A stretch of 59,904 nucleotides of DNA, filler included. It is 6 parts of 6 records of this genome, joined end to end, with 100 filler letters (N's around TTAATTAATTAA, not from the genome) between each part and the next. Parts side by side here need not be neighbours in the genome. Positions count along the whole stretch, not along the records: positions 38,145 to 44,962 come from DRR723986_5557; 5 more parts are not named here. The stretch is one strand, 5' to 3'. This document shows, in pieces, positions 9,554 to 44,962 of the stretch. Each line of letters starts with the position of its first letter. Position 1 is the stretch's first letter. The notes under the pieces were generated by a model. That model ran no database searches, was not told the DNA's origin, and worked only from the letters and a program-made list of their open reading frames with translations. Both the position numbers and the translations under genes were made by a program.

Positions 9554-12010
<2,457 letters not shown>

Positions 12011-14263: not shown

Positions 14264-15511
14264 TTACCGCAGCATCGCCAGCAGTGCGCGCGAGGGCTGG
14301 CCGGTGACCGCCAGCCCCTTCGCGGCCTGATAGGCCGAGATCGCCGCTTCGGTCTTCTTGCCCATGACGCCGTCCGGCGTGCCCGCGTCGTAGCCCGCGC
14401 GGGTCAGGCCGGCCTGGAGCGCCTTGCGGTCCTCCAGCGTCAGCCCGTTGGCGTCCGGTCCGAAGGAGGCAACCAGCGGGCCGTCCCCGGCGAGGCGCCC
14501 GGCCATGTAGCCGACGCCCAGCCCGTAGTTCTCGGACGGGTTGTAGCGCAGGATCATCGTGAAGTTGTGGAAGACGAGGAAGGCGGGCGCGCCCGTGCCC
14601 ATGGGCGCCAGCACCGCCGCCGGACCCGCGTCCGGCAGGGCTCCACCTCGCGCGGGCGTGACGCCCAGCGCGCGCCAGTCTGCCACCGAACGCCGGTTGC
14701 CGCGTCCGATGGCGGCGTCGAAGCCTTGGGGCAGCCGCACCTCCAGCCCCCAGGGCTGGCCGCGCCGCCAGCCCGCCTCGGACAGGAAGCGCGCGGTGGT
14801 CGCGAAGGCATCGACGGGGTTGTCCGACCAGATGTCGCGCTTGCCGTCGCCGTCGAAGTCCACCGCGTGGCGCTGGTAGGCGTCGGGGATCAGCTGGGTG
14901 TGGCCCATGGCCCCGGCCCAGCTGCCCACGAGCTGCTCGGGCCGCGCGTCGCCGGTCTGCAGGATGCGCAGGGCGTTCATCAGGTTCGATTCGAAGAAGG
15001 CCCCGCGGCGGCCCTCCCAGGCCAGGGTCGAGGTGGCCGAGATCACCGGGATCTTGCCGCGCCGCGTGCCGAAGTAGCTTTCCAGTCCCCAGATCGAGCC
15101 CAGCACATCCGCCGCCACGCCGTAGCGGGCCTCGACCTGCGCCAGCGCGCCGCGCTGCCCCGCCACCGCGCGGCGGCCGAAGGCGACCTTCTCCTCGGGG
15201 GCCACGATGGCGAGGTAATCCTCGAGCGAGCGCTTGAACTCGGTCTGGTTGCGGTCGCGCTCGACCACGCCGGGCAGGTAGCCCTGTCCGCGAAAGGCCG
15301 CGGTCAGCACCTCGTCCGAGATGCCCCGCCGCCGGGCGCGGTCCTTGAAGGCCGCGACCCAGGCGTCATAGGACGGGTTGGGCTGGGGGCGCAGCCCCGG
15401 CTCCAGTTCGGGATCGGGCCGGGCCACGTCGGGCACCGCCATGCCGGCCCCGCAGCCCGCCAGCCACAGGGCGGCGGGCGCCATCATCACAAGGCGCCTG
15501 TTGAGTGTCAT
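14264..15511 (-). CDS. lytic murein transglycosylase (MltB-like) with C-terminal peptidoglycan-binding domain
   Basis: Lipoprotein-type leader (LAGC); IWGLESYFG, GSWAGAMGHTQ, DFDGDGKRDIW; PG-binding DGVMGKKT. Confidence 0.9.
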   Translation of the reverse strand: MTLNRRLVMMAPAALWLAGCGAGMAVPDVARPDPELEPGLRPQPNPSYDAWVAAFKDRARRRGISDEVLTAAFRGQGYLPGVVERDRNQTEFKRSLEDYLAIVAPEEKVAFGRRAVAGQRGALAQVEARYGVAADVLGSIWGLESYFGTRRGKIPVISATSTLAWEGRRGAFFESNLMNALRILQTGDARPEQLVGSWAGAMGHTQLIPDAYQRHAVDFDGDGKRDIWSDNPVDAFATTARFLSEAGWRRGQPWGLEVRLPQGFDAAIGRGNRRSVADWRALGVTPARGGALPDAGPAAVLAPMGTGAPAFLVFHNFTMILRYNPSENYGLGVGYMAGRLAGDGPLVASFGPDANGLTLEDRKALQAGLTRAGYDAGTPDGVMGKKTEAAISAYQAAKGLAVTGQPSRALLAMLR

Positions 15512-38144: not shown

Positions 38145-38149
38145 GCGGT

Positions 38150-38260
38150 ATAAGGCCACATTATGTAACAGCGAGTCGCAGGAAGCGGGATACAAAAGAT
38201 TATCACTTAACAGATTGAATGTTTTTGCGGCGGCCGCAGTGCCGAGGTGGCCCGCAAGGC
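38150..38260 (+). repeat. left terminal inverted repeat (25 bp perfect, ~110 bp imperfect)
   Basis: ATAAGGCCACATTATGTAACAGCGA (38150-38174) is the exact reverse complement of 44938-44962; similarity continues (CGGGATACAA, GCGGCGGCC, TGGCCCG). Confidence 0.9.
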
Positions 38261-38309
38261 AGGGGGCATGGCCGTGCCTGGAGCGGCCGGCGAGGCGCTG
38301 TGTAGATTA

Positions 38310-38425
38310 AGAGACTTGGGGTTTGGGGTTGAGTGACTGCGTGAGAGCGGAGAAAGACTTATCTATTATTATTTAAACTATTAACAGACTGACCCGGAAT
38401 CGTTAACGTCAGAGACTTGGGGTTT
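38310..38425 (+). repeat. 15-bp direct repeat pair AGAGACTTGGGGTTT
   Basis: Copies at 38310-38324 and 38411-38425. Confidence 0.7.
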
Positions 38426-38430
38426 AGTGT

Positions 38431-38623
38431 TTTACAATCCTTGTTGGGGCGGATTTAAGGCTTGAAATGCGAGCGTTGTTCAGACAGCAAAGGCATCATT
38501 AGACGTTGTTTCAATCCTTGTTGTAGCGGATGATGGAGCATTACACATAAGCTCACGGTGATGCAGTAGGACTCATTCGAGCATTTGTTTCAATCCATGT
38601 CTGGGCGGATATTTAAGCGCTTA
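38431..38623 (-). CRISPR. degenerate CRISPR-like mini-array, 3 repeats / 2 spacers, no cas genes
   Basis: Minus-strand 37-mers TAAGCGCTTAAATATCCGCCCAGACATGGATTGAAAC, GTAATGCTCCATCATCCGCTACAACAAGGATTGAAAC and TTTCAAGCCTTAAATCCGCCCCAACAAGGATTGTAAA; periods 79 and 77 bp; unique spacers of 42 and 40 nt; ATCC/GGAT stem; ATTGAAAC 3' end in two copies. Confidence 0.65.
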
Positions 38624-38960
38624 GTCCGTACGTCTTTTTTGTCTGTGCATCCCGAATCACCAAGTCGAGTAGATAGTTAACAACCTTTCTGGATTCACTC
38701 GACAGTTGCTGGATTTCCTCAAACTTCTTAAGAAGCTCCGGATCTTTGATCGTCGTTTCCTCCACGTCGTCGTTCATCAGGTAATCGATTGTCGTCCCAA
38801 GTGCGTCGGCGACTTTTTTAATGGATTGTGCCGAGGGCTGGGATGTGTCCTGCTCGTAGCGGGAAATATTCTTTTGATACAGGCCGGAAGCTTCTGCCAG
38901 CTCAAGTTGTGACATTCCTTTCTGCCGCCGCAACATCCTGATTTTTTCTCCTAACTGCAT
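38613..38960 (-). CDS. XRE family HTH transcriptional regulator
   Basis: LGEKIRMLRRQKGMSQLELAEASGLYQKNISRYEQDTSQPS...VADALGTTIDYL. Confidence 0.9.
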   Translation of the reverse strand: MQLGEKIRMLRRQKGMSQLELAEASGLYQKNISRYEQDTSQPSAQSIKKVADALGTTIDYLMNDDVEETTIKDPELLKKFEEIQQLSSESRKVVNYLLDLVIRDAQTKKTYGLSA

Positions 38961-39041
38961 ATATCTGCCTTCACGATTACTGTTTTGTCTCAATAAGTGG
39001 TAATAAAGGCACTTTTTGACTGAGTATCAAGAATAAATAGT

Positions 39042-39080
39042 CGTCTAGGGTTTGCATGCTTTAGACGGTTGTGGTATATT
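39042..39080 (+). promoter_or_regulatory. sigma70-type promoter of the symE-primase operon with a flanking inverted repeat (putative XRE operator)
   Basis: TTGCAT (39052) and TATATT (39075) separated by 17 bp, with TG in the extended -10 position; CGTCTA (39042) / TAGACG (39062) arms bracket the -35. Confidence 0.6.
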
Positions 39081-39159
39081 GAGCGCAAATGTGTCTAGCG
39101 AAAAAGTTTTCCACACCCAGGGAAACAGGTCTGAAATCACATCAAAACCACGAGGAATT

Positions 39160-39444
39160 ATGCCAAACGATCAAATCCGTACGCGCAAACTGCAGCCCAA
39201 GTACTGCCGGCGTCTTGGCGGCGATAGCGTTGTTCCGAGTCTGCACCTTGCGGGCGTATGGCTGGAGAAGCGCGGCTTCCAGGTCGGCGATATCGTTGAG
39301 ATCATCGAGCGCGACGGTTTACTGATCATCCAGTCCTTGCGTGATGAGTCTGCCGAACTGCGTGCGGCGCGGCAGGAACTGCGTGATATTAAACAAGGCA
39401 TCAAGGCATTGTCTGCAAATGGACAGGAGGAGCTCAATGTCTGA
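39160..39444 (+). CDS. SymE-family (AbrB-fold) toxin-like protein
   Basis: VPSLHLAGVWLEKRGFQVGDIVEIIERDGLLII; GAGGA RBS. Confidence 0.8.
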   Translation: MPNDQIRTRKLQPKYCRRLGGDSVVPSLHLAGVWLEKRGFQVGDIVEIIERDGLLIIQSLRDESAELRAARQELRDIKQGIKALSANGQEELNV

Positions 39445-39670
39445 ACCTTGTGTTTTCTCCGGTCACATGAACGCTGTGAGTATTGACTATGATGACGGCC
39501 ACGGTGAGCTGGTTCCGCAGCTGTCGATGTACGGTGCGGAACTGGCGGATGCCGGTTTTCCGATCGGCGAGGAGATTGCGATCATTATCGAAGAGCGGAT
39601 GTTAATCATTGTTCCGCGTTCGCGCGTTGGTGAACGGGCGGCGGCGGTCTCTACGGCGCAGGTGGTGTGA
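39437..39670 (+). CDS. second SymE-like protein
   Basis: VPQLSMYGAELADAGFPIGEEIAIIIEERMLII aligns by eye with the upstream SymE core; GGAGGAG RBS. Confidence 0.6.
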   Translation: MSEPCVFSGHMNAVSIDYDDGHGELVPQLSMYGAELADAGFPIGEEIAIIIEERMLIIVPRSRVGERAAAVSTAQVV

Positions 39671-42304
39671 ATGTCAATCCGCGAATTAAAGGCGCGCGCC
39701 GATATTCTGGATGTGGCCGCGCGCCTGGGTATCGATGTAGACACGCGGACGCAAAAAGCTTTGTGTCCCTTCCATTCCGACAGCAGTCCAAGTTTGCAGT
39801 TCAGCCGTGAACGTCAGATCGCGACCTGTTTTAGCTCGCGTTGTGATGCGGGCACGATGGATGTGGTGGACCTGGTGGAGCGTCACAAGGGTGTTAACAC
39901 AGCGGATGCGGCCAAGTGGCTGGAAGGAGAACTGGGATTAACAGCACCGGTGACAAGCGCCATAACACCAGTAGTACCAAGCCTCAAGGCGAACGAGTCA
40001 CGGGCACTTGTCCTGGCAAAAGTCTGGAAGATGTTCCGATCGGGTATCTACAAAAGCGTGAAGGCGCGCGACTATGTGGCACAGCGTTGTTTAAGTGCCG
40101 ACGCACTTGAGATCGGTTATAACTCCGGCAGTTGGCATCAGGGCCGTTCGGCGGAACTACTGGACGCCGCAGTGGAGTGCGGCCTGTTAACACGGCGTTC
40201 GGGCAGCTATCAGGCGTTCGGCAAGGGTTCTCTGGTCTTTGCACTTAAACATCAGGACGGCACGCCGGGTGGTCTGTACTTCCGTCATGCGGGTCAGAAA
40301 GACGATCCGCATCTTTATCTGAAAAACCGCTCCGGCCTGTATCCGCAGTATCCGGACGCGGGCAGCAAACGCCTTTTACTCACTGAAAGTGTGGTTGATG
40401 CGGCAACGCTGTTAATGCATCCGGCGATCACGCGGCAGTATGCAGTCCTGGCCTTGTACGGCACGAATGGATTTACAGCGGAACATGCCGAGGCCATTAA
40501 AGAGCTGAAGCAGCTCGAAGAAGTTATCCTGGCGATGGACGGTGACGCCAGCGGCCGTGCGGCGATTGAAAAGGTCGGTCGTCAGTTGCATGACCTTCAG
40601 CCGGATATTACGATCAGCGCAGTAAACATGCCGGACGGTGAGGATGTTAACAGCTTTGCCGTGGGGCAGGGGATGGACGCCTTAGAGCTGTTATTGCAAG
40701 ATCGGCGCAGTCTGTTTACATCGGAGAACAGCGGGTTAACAGCCGGTAAGACTTTATTGGAAGTCCCCACTGAACAAGTAGCAGATCCTCCGACTGAAGA
40801 TAAAAGTGTGCTCGATGCCAGTGATCCGGGACGGATTGTTTATCGCAGCGGCGCGGCGGAGTACACGGTGCTTGGCGGTGTTCCGGATGATGCCTCGACA
40901 CTTAAAGTCACGCTTGCAATCGAGCATCCGGCCTCGTATCGCAAGAGTCGTCAGCGCGTGGATCTGTTCGAGGATCGTCAGATTAAACGTGCGGCGAAGG
41001 ACGCCGGTCTGCGTCTGGACCTTGCGGTGCGGAGCATTGAGGAGGACCTGCACCAGCTGGCGGACATACTTGATACCCGCCGCCGGAGCCGCCGCACGGG
41101 CGATGCGCGCGAACGAGTGGCCGTGCCTTCCGGCGCACGTGGTGCCTGTCTTGACTTCCTGCAGGCGCCGGATCTGTCTGGCAGGTTAAACAGCCTTATC
41201 GGTTCCTCGGGTGTTGTCGGAGAAGAAATCCCGCGTCTGTTCCTGTTTATGATCGCGCTGAGTTACAAAATGCCGGAGCCGCTTCACGCCTTGCTTCAGG
41301 GCACGAGCGGTTCGGGTAAAACGCACCTGTTAACGGGCGTGTCAAATCTGATGCCTGCCGAAGACGTGCTCCTGTTAACCCGTGTGACGGAACACAGTCT
41401 GTACAACCACGACGAGAACTTTTTGCGTCACCGGCTGCTGTGTCTTGAAGACCTCGACGGTTTAAAGGAAGAAGCGCTCTACGCCCTGCGCGAGTTGCAG
41501 TCGCGCGGCTCGCTGACAAGTTCAACGAGCGTGCGCGGCACTGACGGCAAGATCCGCGCGGCGATGCGCACGGTGCGCGGCCCGATCGCGAGTCTGGCGG
41601 CAACGACGCATGGCGAGTTGTACGAAGACAATATGAGCCGCTGTTTTTTGGTTGCCGTTGACGAGTCGGAAGAACAAACGCGGCGCGTACTGGAGTATCA
41701 GAATAACCGTGCCGGTGGTCTGATCGATCTTGAAGCCGTTAAACGCACACGCGAGTTCATCCAGAACTGCGTGCGTCTGCTTGAGCCCGTCCAGGTTGTT
41801 AACCCCTATGCCGGGCGTGTGGTCCTGCCGCCGGAAGCGCAGGCCCTGCGCCGCTTAAACGACTTGTATCAGCGTCTGATTGCGCAGGTTGTGATGCTTC
41901 ATCAATATCAGCGCGCGCGTGACGCGCGTGGCGCATTTATCGCCACACCGGCGGATCTGCGTCTGGCCTGCGAGCTCATGTTCGAAAGTGTGGTGATGAA
42001 AATAGATGATTTACCTGTTGACCTGCGCCGGTTTTATGAGCAACTTCAAAGGTGGCTTGAAACGCGTGGTGATAGCGGCCAGACCTTTGGTCGCCGTGAA
42101 ATGCGTGAGGACTTGCGCATCAGCCGCAGCGGTCAACACCGCATGTTAACTGGGCTCGTGGCCTTTGAACGCCTTGAGATTACTGCCGGTGCCTCTCGCC
42201 GAGCCAACCGCTACCGGTTAAGTGATCCGGACTACTACGCGGCCTCACGCAAGCGTGTATATGCCGATCTCCGCAGGCAGATTGATAATCTCGGTAGCGA
42301 ATAA
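39671..42304 (+). CDS. CHC2 zinc finger-Toprim primase fused to a P-loop NTPase (primase/helicase)
   Basis: CPFHSDSSPS...CFSSRC; Toprim TESVVDAATL, MDGDASG, EDVN; Walker A QGTSGSGKT and Walker B LCLED. Confidence 0.88.
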   Translation: MSIRELKARADILDVAARLGIDVDTRTQKALCPFHSDSSPSLQFSRERQIATCFSSRCDAGTMDVVDLVERHKGVNTADAAKWLEGELGLTAPVTSAITPVVPSLKANESRALVLAKVWKMFRSGIYKSVKARDYVAQRCLSADALEIGYNSGSWHQGRSAELLDAAVECGLLTRRSGSYQAFGKGSLVFALKHQDGTPGGLYFRHAGQKDDPHLYLKNRSGLYPQYPDAGSKRLLLTESVVDAATLLMHPAITRQYAVLALYGTNGFTAEHAEAIKELKQLEEVILAMDGDASGRAAIEKVGRQLHDLQPDITISAVNMPDGEDVNSFAVGQGMDALELLLQDRRSLFTSENSGLTAGKTLLEVPTEQVADPPTEDKSVLDASDPGRIVYRSGAAEYTVLGGVPDDASTLKVTLAIEHPASYRKSRQRVDLFEDRQIKRAAKDAGLRLDLAVRSIEEDLHQLADILDTRRRSRRTGDARERVAVPSGARGACLDFLQAPDLSGRLNSLIGSSGVVGEEIPRLFLFMIALSYKMPEPLHALLQGTSGSGKTHLLTGVSNLMPAEDVLLLTRVTEHSLYNHDENFLRHRLLCLEDLDGLKEEALYALRELQSRGSLTSSTSVRGTDGKIRAAMRTVRGPIASLAATTHGELYEDNMSRCFLVAVDESEEQTRRVLEYQNNRAGGLIDLEAVKRTREFIQNCVRLLEPVQVVNPYAGRVVLPPEAQALRRLNDLYQRLIAQVVMLHQYQRARDARGAFIATPADLRLACELMFESVVMKIDDLPVDLRRFYEQLQRWLETRGDSGQTFGRREMREDLRISRSGQHRMLTGLVAFERLEITAGASRRANRYRLSDPDYYAASRKRVYADLRRQIDNLGSE

Positions 42305-42308
42305 AACA

Positions 42309-42471
42309 AACTGTTCCAGGGGTCTGGAACAGTTAACGCCATAAGAATCAAGCACTTACATTATCACCAAAGTTTAAGAAGTGAAAAGTTGGAACAGATC
42401 GGGCGGTTTTGTGCACCCGTTTGGAACAGGTAAGTCTATGATTTATATGCGTTTAAGCCCAACTGTTCCAG
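42309..42471. repeat. iteron-like TGGAACAG repeats, putative replication origin
   Basis: AACTGTTCCAG-GGGT-CTGGAACAGTT palindrome (42309-42334); further copies near 42390, 42422 and inverted at 42463; AT-rich spacers. Confidence 0.65.
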
Positions 42472-42511
42472 AATTTTTAAAAGTGTGTAGACGGTGAGCT
42501 TTTTTGTGGCC

Positions 42512-43372
42512 ATGAACATCGAACACCACTTGCGCGGCTTTAACGCCGATTTGCACTGGCGCGGCCTGAATCCTGTGACCTGCTCGCAGCACGTCGCGTC
42601 CGCACGTGAGCTCCTCGAATGGCTTGCCGCGCACGCAGTACATCGTCTTGAAGATGTTAATCGTTCCATTCTTGATGCGCACGTCGCGTGGCTGTGGCAA
42701 CGTCCGAACCGTCGTCTTGGTGGTCATCTGTCTGTCAGCACGATCCGCGGTCATGTACTGGGCCTGCGGTCGTTCTTTGCGTGGCTGGAGCGCTCCGGCG
42801 TGTTAACAGAAAACCCAGCCTCGACGCTTGCCCTGCCAACGATGCCGCCCGTCCCTGCGCGTGTTGCATTAACAGCCGATGAGATCGCGCGTCTGCGCGC
42901 CAGGTGCCAAAACCCGACCGATCGCGCGCTTCTTGCGGTGTTCTACGGCTGTGGTCTGCGGCGCGCCGAAGGCGCGGCGCTCGACACTGCGGATGTAGAT
43001 GTTGAGCGCGGTCTGCTTCATGTACGGCGCGGCAAGGGCGGCAAGCCGCGCTCGGTGCCGATGAGCGCCGGCGTTCAGCGTGACCTGGCGGATCTGTTGT
43101 GGCGCCATCGTCCGGACGGTCAGACGGCTCTGTTTGTGAACCTGCGCGGTGATCGTCTGAGCGCCAATCGCATGTACGCGCTTGTTAAACAACTGGCACG
43201 GCGTGCGCGAATAACGAGCGTTGTCACGCTCCACGGCCTGCGGCATGCCGTGGCGACACACCTGCTTCAGCGCGGTTTAACACTTGAACAGGTGCGTGAC
43301 TTTTTAGGTCACAGTTCGATCGAGGCCACGCGTATCTATACGCACGGTCTGCCTGCGGAGCCGCAGGAATGA
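42512..43372 (+). CDS. tyrosine recombinase (XerC/D-like) with intact catalytic residues
   Basis: YGCGLRRAE (R), RGKGGK (K), HGLRH (HxxR), LGHSS (H) and TRIYTH (Y). Confidence 0.9.
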   Translation: MNIEHHLRGFNADLHWRGLNPVTCSQHVASARELLEWLAAHAVHRLEDVNRSILDAHVAWLWQRPNRRLGGHLSVSTIRGHVLGLRSFFAWLERSGVLTENPASTLALPTMPPVPARVALTADEIARLRARCQNPTDRALLAVFYGCGLRRAEGAALDTADVDVERGLLHVRRGKGGKPRSVPMSAGVQRDLADLLWRHRPDGQTALFVNLRGDRLSANRMYALVKQLARRARITSVVTLHGLRHAVATHLLQRGLTLEQVRDFLGHSSIEATRIYTHGLPAEPQE

Positions 43373-44220
43373 CACTGGATGAATGGTTAAGCGCTCGCTA
43401 TGCGGCCTCGACGGCCAAAGCCTACCGGCGTGTCATCGACATGTGGTTGAGTCGTATCGGTCGGAAACACGCGCCGGACGCGGTCTACAACGACGTGGCC
43501 GCGTGGATCGGCAGTCTGCGTGAGCAGACGCCCAATCCGGCGAGTCTGCGTGTGTATGTACACGGCCTGCGTGCCTATTACACCTGGCTTGTTGAAATGG
43601 GACATCGCAGGGATGACCCGACGCGTTCGCTCATTGCCGGACGTGTGAGTCGCCACGTGCACCTGCCAGACCTGTTAACAGCGGCGGAAGTGCGGCGCCT
43701 GCGCGCGCATGCCGCAGAACTGGAGCCTCGTCTGCGCGTTACACTTGAGCTGTTGACATACAGCGCATTAACAAGCCGCGAGATCAGTCTGCTGACAACT
43801 GAAAACGTTAACCTGGAAGCCGGCACAATCGATGTTCCGGCGACGGGCCGCACCGAAGCGCGGCAACTGAAACTCACCGGCGTACAGCACAATCACCTGG
43901 TAAACTACCTTGAAGAAGCCAGGCCTGCTCTGCTCTCAGCGCCAACTGAAAAACTCTTGTTAACATCCCGCGGCACGCCGCTCACAGTTGACGGCATCCA
44001 TCACCAGGTCACACGTCTGCGCTCGATCTTGCCGGGAAGAAAATTAACGCCAACCCTGATCCGCCAGTCGGTGATTGCGATGATGTTAAGTAGCGGCACC
44101 GAGTTACGTTCCGTTCAGCTCTTTGCCGGACACCGCTATCCCAGCTCCACCGAACGCTACCGATTTACGAACCTGGCCGAACTACGCGCGGCAGTGACGC
44201 AGTTCCATCCGATGGAATAG
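43369..44220 (+). CDS. second tyrosine recombinase with degenerate active-site motifs
   Basis: SAM-like N-terminus; YSALTSRE replaces GLR; PTLIRQS replaces HxxRH; FAGH...STERY retained. Confidence 0.8.
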   Translation: MTLDEWLSARYAASTAKAYRRVIDMWLSRIGRKHAPDAVYNDVAAWIGSLREQTPNPASLRVYVHGLRAYYTWLVEMGHRRDDPTRSLIAGRVSRHVHLPDLLTAAEVRRLRAHAAELEPRLRVTLELLTYSALTSREISLLTTENVNLEAGTIDVPATGRTEARQLKLTGVQHNHLVNYLEEARPALLSAPTEKLLLTSRGTPLTVDGIHHQVTRLRSILPGRKLTPTLIRQSVIAMMLSSGTELRSVQLFAGHRYPSSTERYRFTNLAELRAAVTQFHPME

Positions 44221-44306
44221 GCGCAGATACACTCGGCGCGGTTCAGGGTCGTTGTATCTGTCATTGATTAGAAGTTCTTACGAACAAATCCAACGTGGTG
44301 TTTATC

Positions 44307-44513
44307 ATGAGAAAAGTACTATTGCATCGCGCCGAAGAAGGTGGCTGGGTTGTCACCTGTCCCTCGCTTCCCGGCTGTGTGAGCGAAGGAGAAACCAAGG
44401 ACGAGGCACTGGCCAATATCCGCGAGGCGATCGACCTTTATATTGAAGATATGATCGCCGATGGCGAACCGGTTCCCGAGGACTGGGGCGAAACTCTTCT
44501 GGTAGCGGTATGA
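44307..44513 (+). CDS. hicB: HicB-family antitoxin (short form)
   Basis: EEGGWVVTCPSLPGCVSEGETKDEALANIREAI. Confidence 0.88.
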   Translation: MRKVLLHRAEEGGWVVTCPSLPGCVSEGETKDEALANIREAIDLYIEDMIADGEPVPEDWGETLLVAV

Positions 44514-44731
44514 GCCATATTCCGGTGATCAGTGGCCGTAAATGTGTCAAGGCTCTTGAGAAAATCGGCTTTGTCTTCAAGCGACAGCGTGGCAGTCACA
44601 TGATCCTGAAACGCCCAAATCCACCCTGCCGGGTATCGGTCCCGGATCACAAGGCCATGAAAACCGGAACGTTGTATACGATTATCAAAGAAGCCGGATT
44701 AACTGTTGAGCAGTTCAAAGAACTCCTGTGA
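44510..44731 (+). CDS. hicA: HicA-family mRNA interferase toxin
   Basis: KALEKIGFVFKRQRGSHMIL...VPDH...GTLYTIIKEAGL. Confidence 0.9.
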   Translation: MSHIPVISGRKCVKALEKIGFVFKRQRGSHMILKRPNPPCRVSVPDHKAMKTGTLYTIIKEAGLTVEQFKELL

Positions 44732-44854
44732 CCCTCCAGGGTTCAGTTTACGTTACATTCTGACGTGTTAACACCCAACAACAAACCTCCGAACCACAAA
44801 CCGAAAGCCTGGGCACGCCACTCATCAGGCCACTTCCGTCGTGGACCTTCCACT

Positions 44855-44962
44855 CCGTCCGGGCCATCTTCGCGCCGTGGCCGCCGCCGGGCGAAAGAGC
44901 CAAAAGTGTTAAGCCATTGTATCCCGACGCTTGCGCATCGCTGTTACATAATGTGGCCTTAT
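44855..44962 (-). repeat. right terminal inverted repeat
   Basis: TCGCTGTTACATAATGTGGCCTTAT (44938-44962) is the reverse complement of the left end. Confidence 0.9.

Follow-up and report, generated by a model that had tools for sequence, protein, structure and literature searches.

The window analysed here, i.e. a stretch of 59.9 kb in which six contigs are joined by N44-TTAATTAATTAA-N44 filler, contains at positions 38145–44962 a contig of 6818 bp that as a whole makes up the element described below. It carries a repressor gene, an operon for small SymE-like proteins, a primase-type replication protein and two tyrosine recombinases, a hicBA pair, a small CRISPR-like array and an inverted repeat at either end. 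A first-pass annotation of these DNA letters had read the contig as a compact ‘satellite/transposon-like’ element of a poorly described class. Gene calls and Pfam searches agree with the gene set it proposed (XRE-type switch, two SymE copies, primase, origin, recombinase pair and HicBA) and, as it had also stated, capsid, conjugation or DDE transposase genes are not found by Pfam among the open reading frames (ORFs) of the contig. The remaining ORFs have no Pfam match, a search of the contig for an Rhs-like segment found none, and its DNA matches none of the plasmid and phage records searched. From sequence comparison, we propose that the contig probably represents a complete unit from a so far undescribed family of small elements, which would replicate themselves and move by their own Xer-type recombination. 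Its features are the following (with the basis of each assignment in brackets).

38145–38208, plus strand: left end, with the dif-like core site and the remainder of the 59-nt inverted repeat (repeat search, site alignment)
38227–38259, no strand: left arm of a subterminal GC-rich inverted repeat with its partner at 44855–44887 (33 nt, 76% complementary)
38328–38623, minus strand: mini-CRISPR-like array (repeat searches, match to a cas-linked repeat)
38613–38993, minus strand: repressor of the RstR family, XRE/Cro-C1 type (HTH_3, NF041951)
39052–39444, plus strand: SymE/AbrB-fold small protein 1, likely start 39160 (PF08845)
39341–39670, plus strand: SymE-like small protein 2, likely start 39437 (PF08845 below cut-off)
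39671–42304, plus strand: replication protein, primase/P-loop fusion (CHC2, Toprim, PF27228)
42305–42493, no strand: putative origin with iterons (five TGGAACAG words)
42494–43372, plus strand: tyrosine recombinase 1, XerC/D-like (Pfam, NCBIfam, catalytic-residue alignment)
43369–44220, plus strand: tyrosine recombinase 2, XerD/C-like (Pfam, NCBIfam, catalytic-residue alignment)
44295–44731, plus strand: HicB antitoxin (44295–44513) and HicA toxin (44510–44731) (Pfam)
44904–44962, minus strand: right end with an inverted dif-like site, 5 nt short at the contig end (repeat search, site alignment)

The repressor matches HTH_3 (E 1.6e-14) and, with 85.5 bits against a cut-off of 80, the NCBIfam model NF041951 of the RstR family; its gene stands divergent from the operon of SymE-like, primase and recombinase genes and keeps this place in relatives. 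At the head of the operon, the first SymE-like ORF reaches 29.7 bits for PF08845 (cut-off 29), the second stays below this cut-off with 21.2 bits, and the NCBIfam SymE equivalog model gives 26.5 bits against a cut-off of 132. The likely starts are each preceded by a Shine–Dalgarno-like motif (AGGAGG in front of 39437), the second ORF stops 1 nt ahead of the primase start codon, and one SymE-like copy is conserved in relatives of the Chitinophagaceae type; as products of the first genes of the operon, these proteins may be AbrB-fold regulators. The primase (877 amino acids) combines a CHC2 zinc finger and a Toprim domain, both within its first 350 residues, with a C-terminal half formed by a P-loop domain of family PF27228 (Walker A motif GTSGSGKT). 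This family is recorded on all 120 of the 120 homologues among the matches listed as well as on look-alike clusters of the Atlas; a search of the PDB by sequence found no relative of this half. The two recombinase genes overlap by 4 nt. Recombinase 1 shows the residues R, H-x-x-R, H and Y in the alignment, and the first catalytic arginine is present also in recombinase 2 of the window copy. Scoring 157.7 bits for the XerC equivalog (NCBIfam cut-off 335) and 106.3 bits for the XerD equivalog (cut-off 329.6), respectively, the two proteins are Xer-like paralogues and not the housekeeping XerC and XerD. The hicB and hicA genes (PF15919, E 4.9e-14, and PF07927, E 6.7e-20) also overlap by 4 nt and, as adjacent genes for HicB and HicA domain proteins, constitute a HicAB type II toxin–antitoxin system.

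How such a unit could move is suggested by its ends. The terminal arms (38150–38208 and 44904–44962) form an inverted repeat of 59 nt that is 83% complementary; its outermost 25 nt are perfect and have no further copy in the window, and none of 100 shuffles gave any match. The second inverted pair, located further inside, may be accessory sequence. That the contig is bounded by inverted repeats, as stated in the first-pass annotation, holds true in so far as both ends are repeats, but the contig begins 5 nt outside the left repeat, and in an alignment with the sites of relatives these 5 nt belong to the conserved site. This left site (~38145–38176) consists of a left arm ending in ...GGTATAA, a 7-nt centre (GGCCACA) and the right arm TTATGTAACAG. 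The sites aligned for the family, i.e. those of the window, of the related loci L013, L027 and L043 and of Flavobacteriales-type loci, are two-armed throughout, with ...C/G-TATAA, approximately 7 nt and TTATGTAA(A/C)A.... Fifteen relatives were searched directly for inverted repeats flanking the module, with one clear case, L013 from Flavobacterium soyae, where the pair scored 25 against a shuffle maximum of 16; the core of this pair and the window end have ATTATGTAACA in common, and a search with that word found the site in many loci. Between the window end (TATAAGGCCACATTATGTAA) and the site of L043, only one of 20 positions differs, centre included, with the primase of L043 being ~40% identical.

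Counted over 15 fixed positions with at most two mismatches, there are 40 copies of the site in 584,877 bp of related loci, with ~1.1 expected. Where at least 700 bp of sequence follow the end of the recombinase 2 gene, a copy is found no more than 1 kb away in 17 of 34 cases, mostly at a distance of 180–290 bp. Sites with a centre shorter by 1 nt (L013 at 9031 and L042 at 5208) were picked up by the motif search only, a profile scan for weaker copies returned strong ones only, and the exact end-site patterns had no match in metagenome contigs and none in viral contigs. The general anatomy of dif sites has been described (PMC5357621), and the consensus of 17 Acinetobacter XerC/D sites is a 28-mer with 11-nt arms and a 6-nt centre, the invariant letters of which read TT..TAA, then the central region, then TTATG..AA (PMC5790767). 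The right arm of this consensus is matched at 10 of 11 positions by the Flavobacteriales-type site and at 8 of 11 by the window site; the centre has 7 nt on the present alignment versus 6 nt in the Acinetobacter consensus. The core of the ends is predicted to be a dif-like site of the Xer type and not a transposase end and, since Xer-like genes adjoin an Xer-like site in two phyla, the simplest reading would be that the recombinase pair acts on this site.

The sites also show a characteristic arrangement. In the window and in L013, they form an inverted pair, with a plus site before the repressor side and a minus site after the recombinase side. In L013, sites stand back to back with an 11-nt spacing, and the two ends of the window contig, if joined, would give the same picture; in L004, L042 and L043, a minus site lies 3' of recombinase 2, and a plus site with which the next unit begins comes ~45–50 nt after it. 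The Flavobacteriales-type tandem arrays L054, L049 and L019 have one plus site per unit, i.e. direct repeats one unit apart. The first-pass annotation had staked its interpretation on homologues sharing the terminal repeats, and indeed the core is conserved, with inverted pairs present in L013, L004, L042 and L043. The idea of a circle opened at a palindrome conserved in relatives was dropped, as the 23–59-nt palindromes near the repressor gene of relatives are ordinary bidirectional terminators composed of A-run, GC-stem and T-run. As a separate observation, L002 (~10880–10960) and L046 (~14860–14930), which are Chitinophaga-type loci without the dif-like site, have 3' of recombinase 2 a conserved segment that resembles the T-arm of a tRNA (GGGAATCGAACCCGC).

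When homologues were collected by primase and recombinase synteny and their ends and cargo compared, as the first-pass annotation had suggested, module, site and Rhs cargo were found to recur. Primase homologues occur at 33 loci in species genomes, almost all of them from Bacteroidota, and at 29 loci in metagenomes (24 of these strong). At all loci except one fragment, identity is at most ~45% over most of the length. The exception is an 81%-identical C-terminal primase fragment in a gammaproteobacterial metagenome-assembled genome (MAG), on contigs of 1.5 and 2.3 kb without ends; among 400 scored genomes of the class of this MAG, it is the only one with a close primase match. The gene order repressor (on the minus strand)/[SymE]/primase/recombinase 1/recombinase 2 is present at 29 of the 33 genome loci and, in metagenomes, at 18 of the 24 strong ones; loci without it end at the primase. 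A link to Rhs toxin genes, as initially put forward, became evident with this recurring module, which has an Rhs-core segment beside it at no fewer than 35 of 57 loci, mostly in Bacteroidota. In these relatives, the stretch from the left site to the repressor gene, i.e. the slot that holds the mini-array in the window, is taken up by a fragment of the Rhs core together with a toxin tip and an immunity gene, and L040 has a HicA-like gene 3' of the recombinases in the same relative place as hicBA, in agreement with the notion of two cargo positions just inside the ends.

Rhs-bearing units are often arranged in tandem behind a full rhs gene, with periods of 7.8–8.7 kb. On the complete chromosome of Flavobacterium davisii (CP067378, ~1.66–1.70 Mb; L028/L029), three tandem units follow a full-length rhs gene, spaced 7,833–7,837 bp apart and 99.3–99.9% identical; in these copies, two ORFs (310 and 408 amino acids) take the place of one continuous primase frame, and the gene may be broken or a naturally shorter form. 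As assigned by Pfam, L028 has upstream of the module a full-length Rhs protein with a C-terminal Endonuclea_NS_2 nuclease and then a SUKH immunity gene, and after the module an orphan Rhs-core fragment with the same Endonuclea_NS_2 domain, and in L027 the module is accompanied by an Rhs fragment that carries a WHH nuclease and by genes for SUKH immunity and AbiTii abortive infection. In some relatives, i.e. L023 (6464–6764, 34 nt x 8.9 copies) and L026 (7698–7870, 56 nt x 3.1 copies), head-to-tail tandem repeats separate recombinase 2 from the Rhs fragment that follows; these are of another kind than the window repeats, which are interspaced.

That these units replicate on their own is suggested by the region between primase and recombinase 1, where TGGAACAG occurs in five copies within 42311–42470 (11 matches in the whole window versus 1.45 expected) and two such iterons form an 11-bp hairpin directly 3' of the primase stop codon. 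At the same place, relatives have two to four direct iteron copies ~11 nt apart, a spacer and then two inverted copies; the iteron word itself differs between subfamilies (GGAACGC, CGAACAC and GGAACAG), with the layout being conserved. Such co-variation is as seen with an initiator and its iterons and thus supports the interpretation of this cluster as an origin, as it had been labelled initially. Furthermore, L027 (11,363 bp, binned as Limnohabitans) has an identical terminal overlap of 327 bp, which points to a circle or a (collapsed) tandem, and 82 of 120 homologue clusters among the matches listed are never found on a contig longer than 10 kb, which fits repeated or extrachromosomal units. 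P0001 (70% identical) sits on a contig of 6,628 bp, and P0002, the other relative with 70% identity, on one of 25,660 bp.

The array in the left slot of the window copy consists of three repeats on the minus strand—R1 (38431–38454, with an end at 38429 in the array as annotated), R2 (38508–38531) and R3 (38587–38610)—which are 77 and 79 nt apart, and a degenerate fourth repeat near 38328–38360. The spacers of ~42 and 40 nt are unique, and R1 carries a 2-nt insertion; 24–26 nt are common to the repeats, where CRISPR arrays have regularly spaced, nearly identical repeats of 28–37 nt. R3, the first repeat after the repressor gene, overlaps the last codons and the stop codon of this gene, and no terminator-like site was found between gene and repeats. 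Rfam returned a sub-threshold match of the array to CRISPR-DR7 (26.2 bits versus a gathering score of 37) and nothing otherwise. When the repeat consensus, at no more than three mismatches, was used to scan 401 genomes from the class to which the related MAG belongs, 11 genomes had matches, and several copies (five, 71–75 nt apart) occurred in the genome G144 only; a reversed control pattern gave four single matches. The G144 array has a 37-nt repeat and directly follows cmr3, RAMP, cmr5 and RAMP genes, which makes it type III-B. R2 is identical to this repeat in 23 of the last 24 nt (26 of 37 overall) and R3 in 18 of the last 24 (22 of 37 overall), and the part that the window repeats have in common with it includes the ATTGAAAC end. 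Repeat ends of the ATTGAAAC type give rise to the 8-nt crRNA tag in such systems. The CRISPR-like character claimed early on for this module is thereby traced to a homologous, type III-B-linked repeat, and the array appears to be CRISPR-derived; it may be a source of guides, a decoy or a structure in decay. The RNA fold of the array region is no better than that of shuffles on both strands (z 0.45 and 1.21), and the repeat pattern has no match in viral contigs. In G144 itself, contig C192 (L091, 332–4931) carries the type III-B locus and then at least five repeats of 37 nt that reach the contig end, and single repeat-like matches in another genome, G225, turned out not to be arrays. In an unannotated stretch of a Bacteroidota plasmid (Aureispira sp., NZ_CP133672.1, 42710–42746), there is a weak match to R2 (31 of 37 nt, E 0.3), which could be another CRISPR-like repeat or chance.

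With respect to its surroundings, the record of the window resembles a loose bin or an ordinary collection of metagenome contigs, and linkage of the contig at 38145–44962 to its neighbours should not be assumed. Across the six contigs of the window, GC content per kb ranges from ~0.44 to 0.75, with ~0.44–0.60 in this contig versus 0.54–0.75 in the neighbouring ones. The palindrome GTTAAC is present in 16 copies in the 6.8-kb contig, with ~1.3 expected from base composition; these represent 16 of the 19 copies of the whole window and occur in mixed frames as well as in non-coding DNA. Related fragments with 74–79% identity (L069 and L071 of G001) have seven copies in 3.8 kb. Relatives in Bacteroidota are instead rich in CTGCAG, with 10 copies in 5.6 kb of L013 and 11 in 5.1 kb of L040.

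How might such a unit work? If the contig is indeed a self-replicating element with its own Xer-type recombination, the two overlapping recombinases would each bind one half of the dif-like core site. Recombination between the two inverted sites of the unit itself would lead to inversion. If the partner were a site in the same orientation, on an adjacent unit or on a different replicon, the result would be excision of a circle, insertion or a swap, much like the exchange proposed for cassettes bounded by Xer sites in Acinetobacter plasmids. The free circle would be copied from the iteron cluster by the primase/P-loop fusion, with the RstR-type repressor keeping the element quiet and HicBA penalizing its loss. 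The left slot, extending from the site to the repressor gene, would accommodate cargo for biological conflict, which in Bacteroidota relatives is a piece of the Rhs core plus a new toxin tip and its immunity gene. In the window copy, the array would be transcribed as the tail of the repressor mRNA and could provide guide RNAs or decoy repeats for the Cmr system of a host.

Several observations do not easily fit this picture. The window is a mixed set of contigs, and the two closest full-length relatives of the element (70%) are known as proteins only. At the stringency used for the site count, 17 of the 34 testable relatives do not have the site, and Chitinophaga pinensis-type loci (L002, L046, L040 and L006) do not have it even in the profile scan. 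Where it is present, most Flavobacteriales-type units show a single, directly oriented site and no inverted ends. Moreover, the site contains TATAAT and may serve as a promoter element as well, or be nothing more than that. The first catalytic arginine of recombinase 2 is replaced in both Bacteroidota relatives aligned. As for the array, its three repeats differ mutually, only their 3' 24–26 nt resemble a CRISPR repeat with the 5' thirds being unrelated, and neither a cas gene nor an Rhs gene is linked to it on the contig; protospacers were found neither in related loci nor in the window, and the best phage or plasmid match covers 21 of 22 nt with E 0.6. Finally, a perfect repeat of 25 nt alone should not break a modern assembly, yet the contig stops exactly at the sites, for which we favour structural heterogeneity at these positions as the predicted cause.

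The contig could alternatively be a plain small circular plasmid, with back-to-back sites that resolve multimers like cer or psi, and with the assembler having opened the circle exactly there. This would account for the replication module, the iteron cluster and the toxin–antitoxin pair; joining of the ends would give a minus and then a plus site, just as at the junctions in L013 (with its 11-nt spacer), L004, L042 and L043, and L027 looks circular. However, the contig does not have the terminal direct overlap that is usual for circular contigs, multimer resolution takes one site rather than two inverted ones, relatives are chromosomal with three of them in one complete genome, and an opening by chance exactly between the sites would, by our estimate, occur once in several hundred cases. 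We consider this explanation rather unlikely. Less credit still can be given to a transposon with several tyrosine recombinases in the style of SE, RIT, GInt or Tn554, which would move by cut-and-paste or copy-out with ends joined in a circular intermediate and would insert at a few target sites and be present in several contexts. A contig that stops at both ends is what a repeat in multiple contexts should produce, such elements have imperfect inverted ends of 13–34 bp, and two SEs measure 6.3 and 7.2 kb (PMC10214605). Yet no counterpart of the SE core genes tfp and srap is among the ORFs, and the recombinases, of which there are two and not three, score as Xer-like and not as any such transposon family; the end is a complete two-armed site of the Xer type, and one direct copy per tandem unit, as in the relatives, is not a transposon pattern.

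Two further explanations seem very improbable, and to about the same degree. The compactness of the unit, with its repressor switch, its recombinases and a replication protein of the primase type, would fit a phage satellite or PICI/P4-like island that depends on a helper phage, and the repressor family is even named after the repressor of a filamentous phage; but there are no packaging, capsid-redirecting or cos/pac-type genes, a primase search of IMG/VR gave six weak, Toprim-only matches, no phage record matched the contig DNA, and relatives lie in rhs loci and not at tRNA or helper-linked sites. With a linear replicon that has hairpin- or protein-capped inverted ends, or with a terminal repeat that is an assembly artefact, contig ends would coincide with inverted repeats, as they do here. 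With 83% across its 59 nt, however, the repeat is imperfect, and a further diverged pair follows it, which excludes a fold-back assembly chimera; the 5 nt that precede the left repeat form part of the conserved site rather than a fold-back complement, no protein-primed polymerase or protein of telomere-resolvase size is encoded, and the same site is found inside long chromosomal contigs of relatives. What remains of the initial ‘satellite/transposon-like’ description is a poorly described, compact and presumably mobile unit, whereas the satellite part (with packaging genes absent and weak Toprim-only matches in IMG/VR) and ends of the transposase type, in the place of which there are Xer-type sites, did not hold up. 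‘Poorly described’ itself seems justified, as no account of the module of primase and recombinase pair, of its site or of its link to Rhs was found in the literature searched, with subscription journals and supplementary files lying outside our view.

Beyond the single contig, the association with rhs loci touches on the question of how Rhs proteins acquire new toxin tips. In the accessible part of PMC13183296, which cites Jackson et al. 2009, tip acquisition by Rhs and other polymorphic toxins is described only as ‘displacement’ by recombination that leaves arrays of orphan tips as its trace, and no dedicated machine for it is named there. The order of main rhs gene, new tip, immunity gene, module, site, orphan core and old tip could be modelled as the trace of a Campbell-type entry of a circle via the Rhs core. 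We put forward, as a tentative idea that is somewhat less likely to be right than wrong, that elements of this family serve as the vehicle so far missing from the picture of Rhs C-terminal displacement: self-replicating circles with their own dif-like sites would carry a promoterless Rhs core, a new tip and an immunity gene and enter an rhs locus by core homology or Xer-type exchange, with the old tip being pushed downstream as an orphan. In the window copy, the same chassis would have exchanged the tip for a type III-B mini-array and HicBA and would have crossed from Bacteroidota-type hosts into Gammaproteobacteria. A widespread unit located between Rhs tips has a replication protein, an Xer-like pair and matching sites of its own, and the question of tip acquisition thus becomes testable in culturable strains of Chitinophaga, Flavobacterium and Chryseobacterium.

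Among known systems, SE, GInt, RIT and Tn554 are similarly small; they carry two or three recombinase genes side by side, have imperfect inverted ends but no transfer genes, and form a circular intermediate (PMC10214605, PMC3414803). In SE, intA, tfp, intB and srap lie between imperfect inverted repeats of 13–19 bp (PMC10214605), whereas only hicBA, and no counterpart of tfp or srap, follows the recombinase genes here, so that the two are set apart by gene list. The other core genes of this group (ginC/D and tnpC) are absent from the element as well, RIT elements have three adjacent tyrosine recombinase genes versus two here and, in the accessible descriptions, all these transposons are without a primase, have recombinases that are larger or of other families, and have ends that are not described as Xer-type sites. 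BIM elements, first considered as recombinase pairs, were discarded as kin, since in the accessible source they are described with one recombinase and an SMC-like protein.

Elements of the IMEX type (CTXphi, TLCphi and GGI) also carry a dif-like site, integrate by Xer recombination and form tandem arrays at their target (PMC5357621), and CTXphi-type elements have the RstR repressor, the family model of which the repressor of our element passes. As far as described in the accessible source, IMEX use the host XerCD at chromosomal dif and have no replicon of their own, whereas the element brings its own recombinase pair. The family of the element lies in rhs loci, not demonstrably at dif, and is without filamentous-phage genes.

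Mini-CRISPR arrays, solitary repeats and RNA anti-CRISPRs on viruses and plasmids consist of a few repeats without cas genes and presumably use or jam the Cas proteins of the host. The window array differs from these by forming the 3' tail of a repressor gene and by diverged repeats that keep the 3' two-thirds of a type III-B-linked repeat; it adds an example of a type III-like array that has no cas genes and is coupled to the repressor gene of a mobile element. Like the family described here, rAID links a tyrosine recombinase to arrays of orphan toxin-tip/immunity cassettes with conserved intergenic motifs; it has, in contrast, a single recombinase, many short immunity genes and no primase or replication module, and dif-like sites are unmentioned in the accessible part of its description.

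Along with IMEX, the nearest described parallel is provided by the Xer-site cassettes of Acinetobacter plasmids (pdif modules or xrs-cassettes), in which XerC/D-type sites with 11-nt arms and a centre of 6–8 nt bracket DNA, often in opposite orientation, and toxin–antitoxin genes form part of the cargo; recombination between sites of co-resident replicons is assumed to underlie their movement (PMC5790767; bioRxiv 10.1101/2024.04.09.588662). The Acinetobacter consensus (PMC5790767) and the site of our element are alike in shape, sharing a left arm that closes with TAA and a right arm that opens with TTATG. Bracketing by two inverted Xer-type sites is found here too, with 25 identical nt, but not dependence on a host recombinase: as described in the accessible sources, the Acinetobacter cassettes use the chromosomal XerC and XerD and have no replication genes, whereas the element has its own pair, its own primase/Rep protein and its own origin. 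It differs also in hosts, i.e. Bacteroidota and, presumably, an uncultured gammaproteobacterium, and in cargo, with Rhs tips or a mini-CRISPR array. The element would work like an Xer-site cassette without being a member of that family, and the concept of the Xer-site cassette, so far tied to host XerCD on Acinetobacter plasmids, would thereby extend to self-sufficient elements in other phyla.

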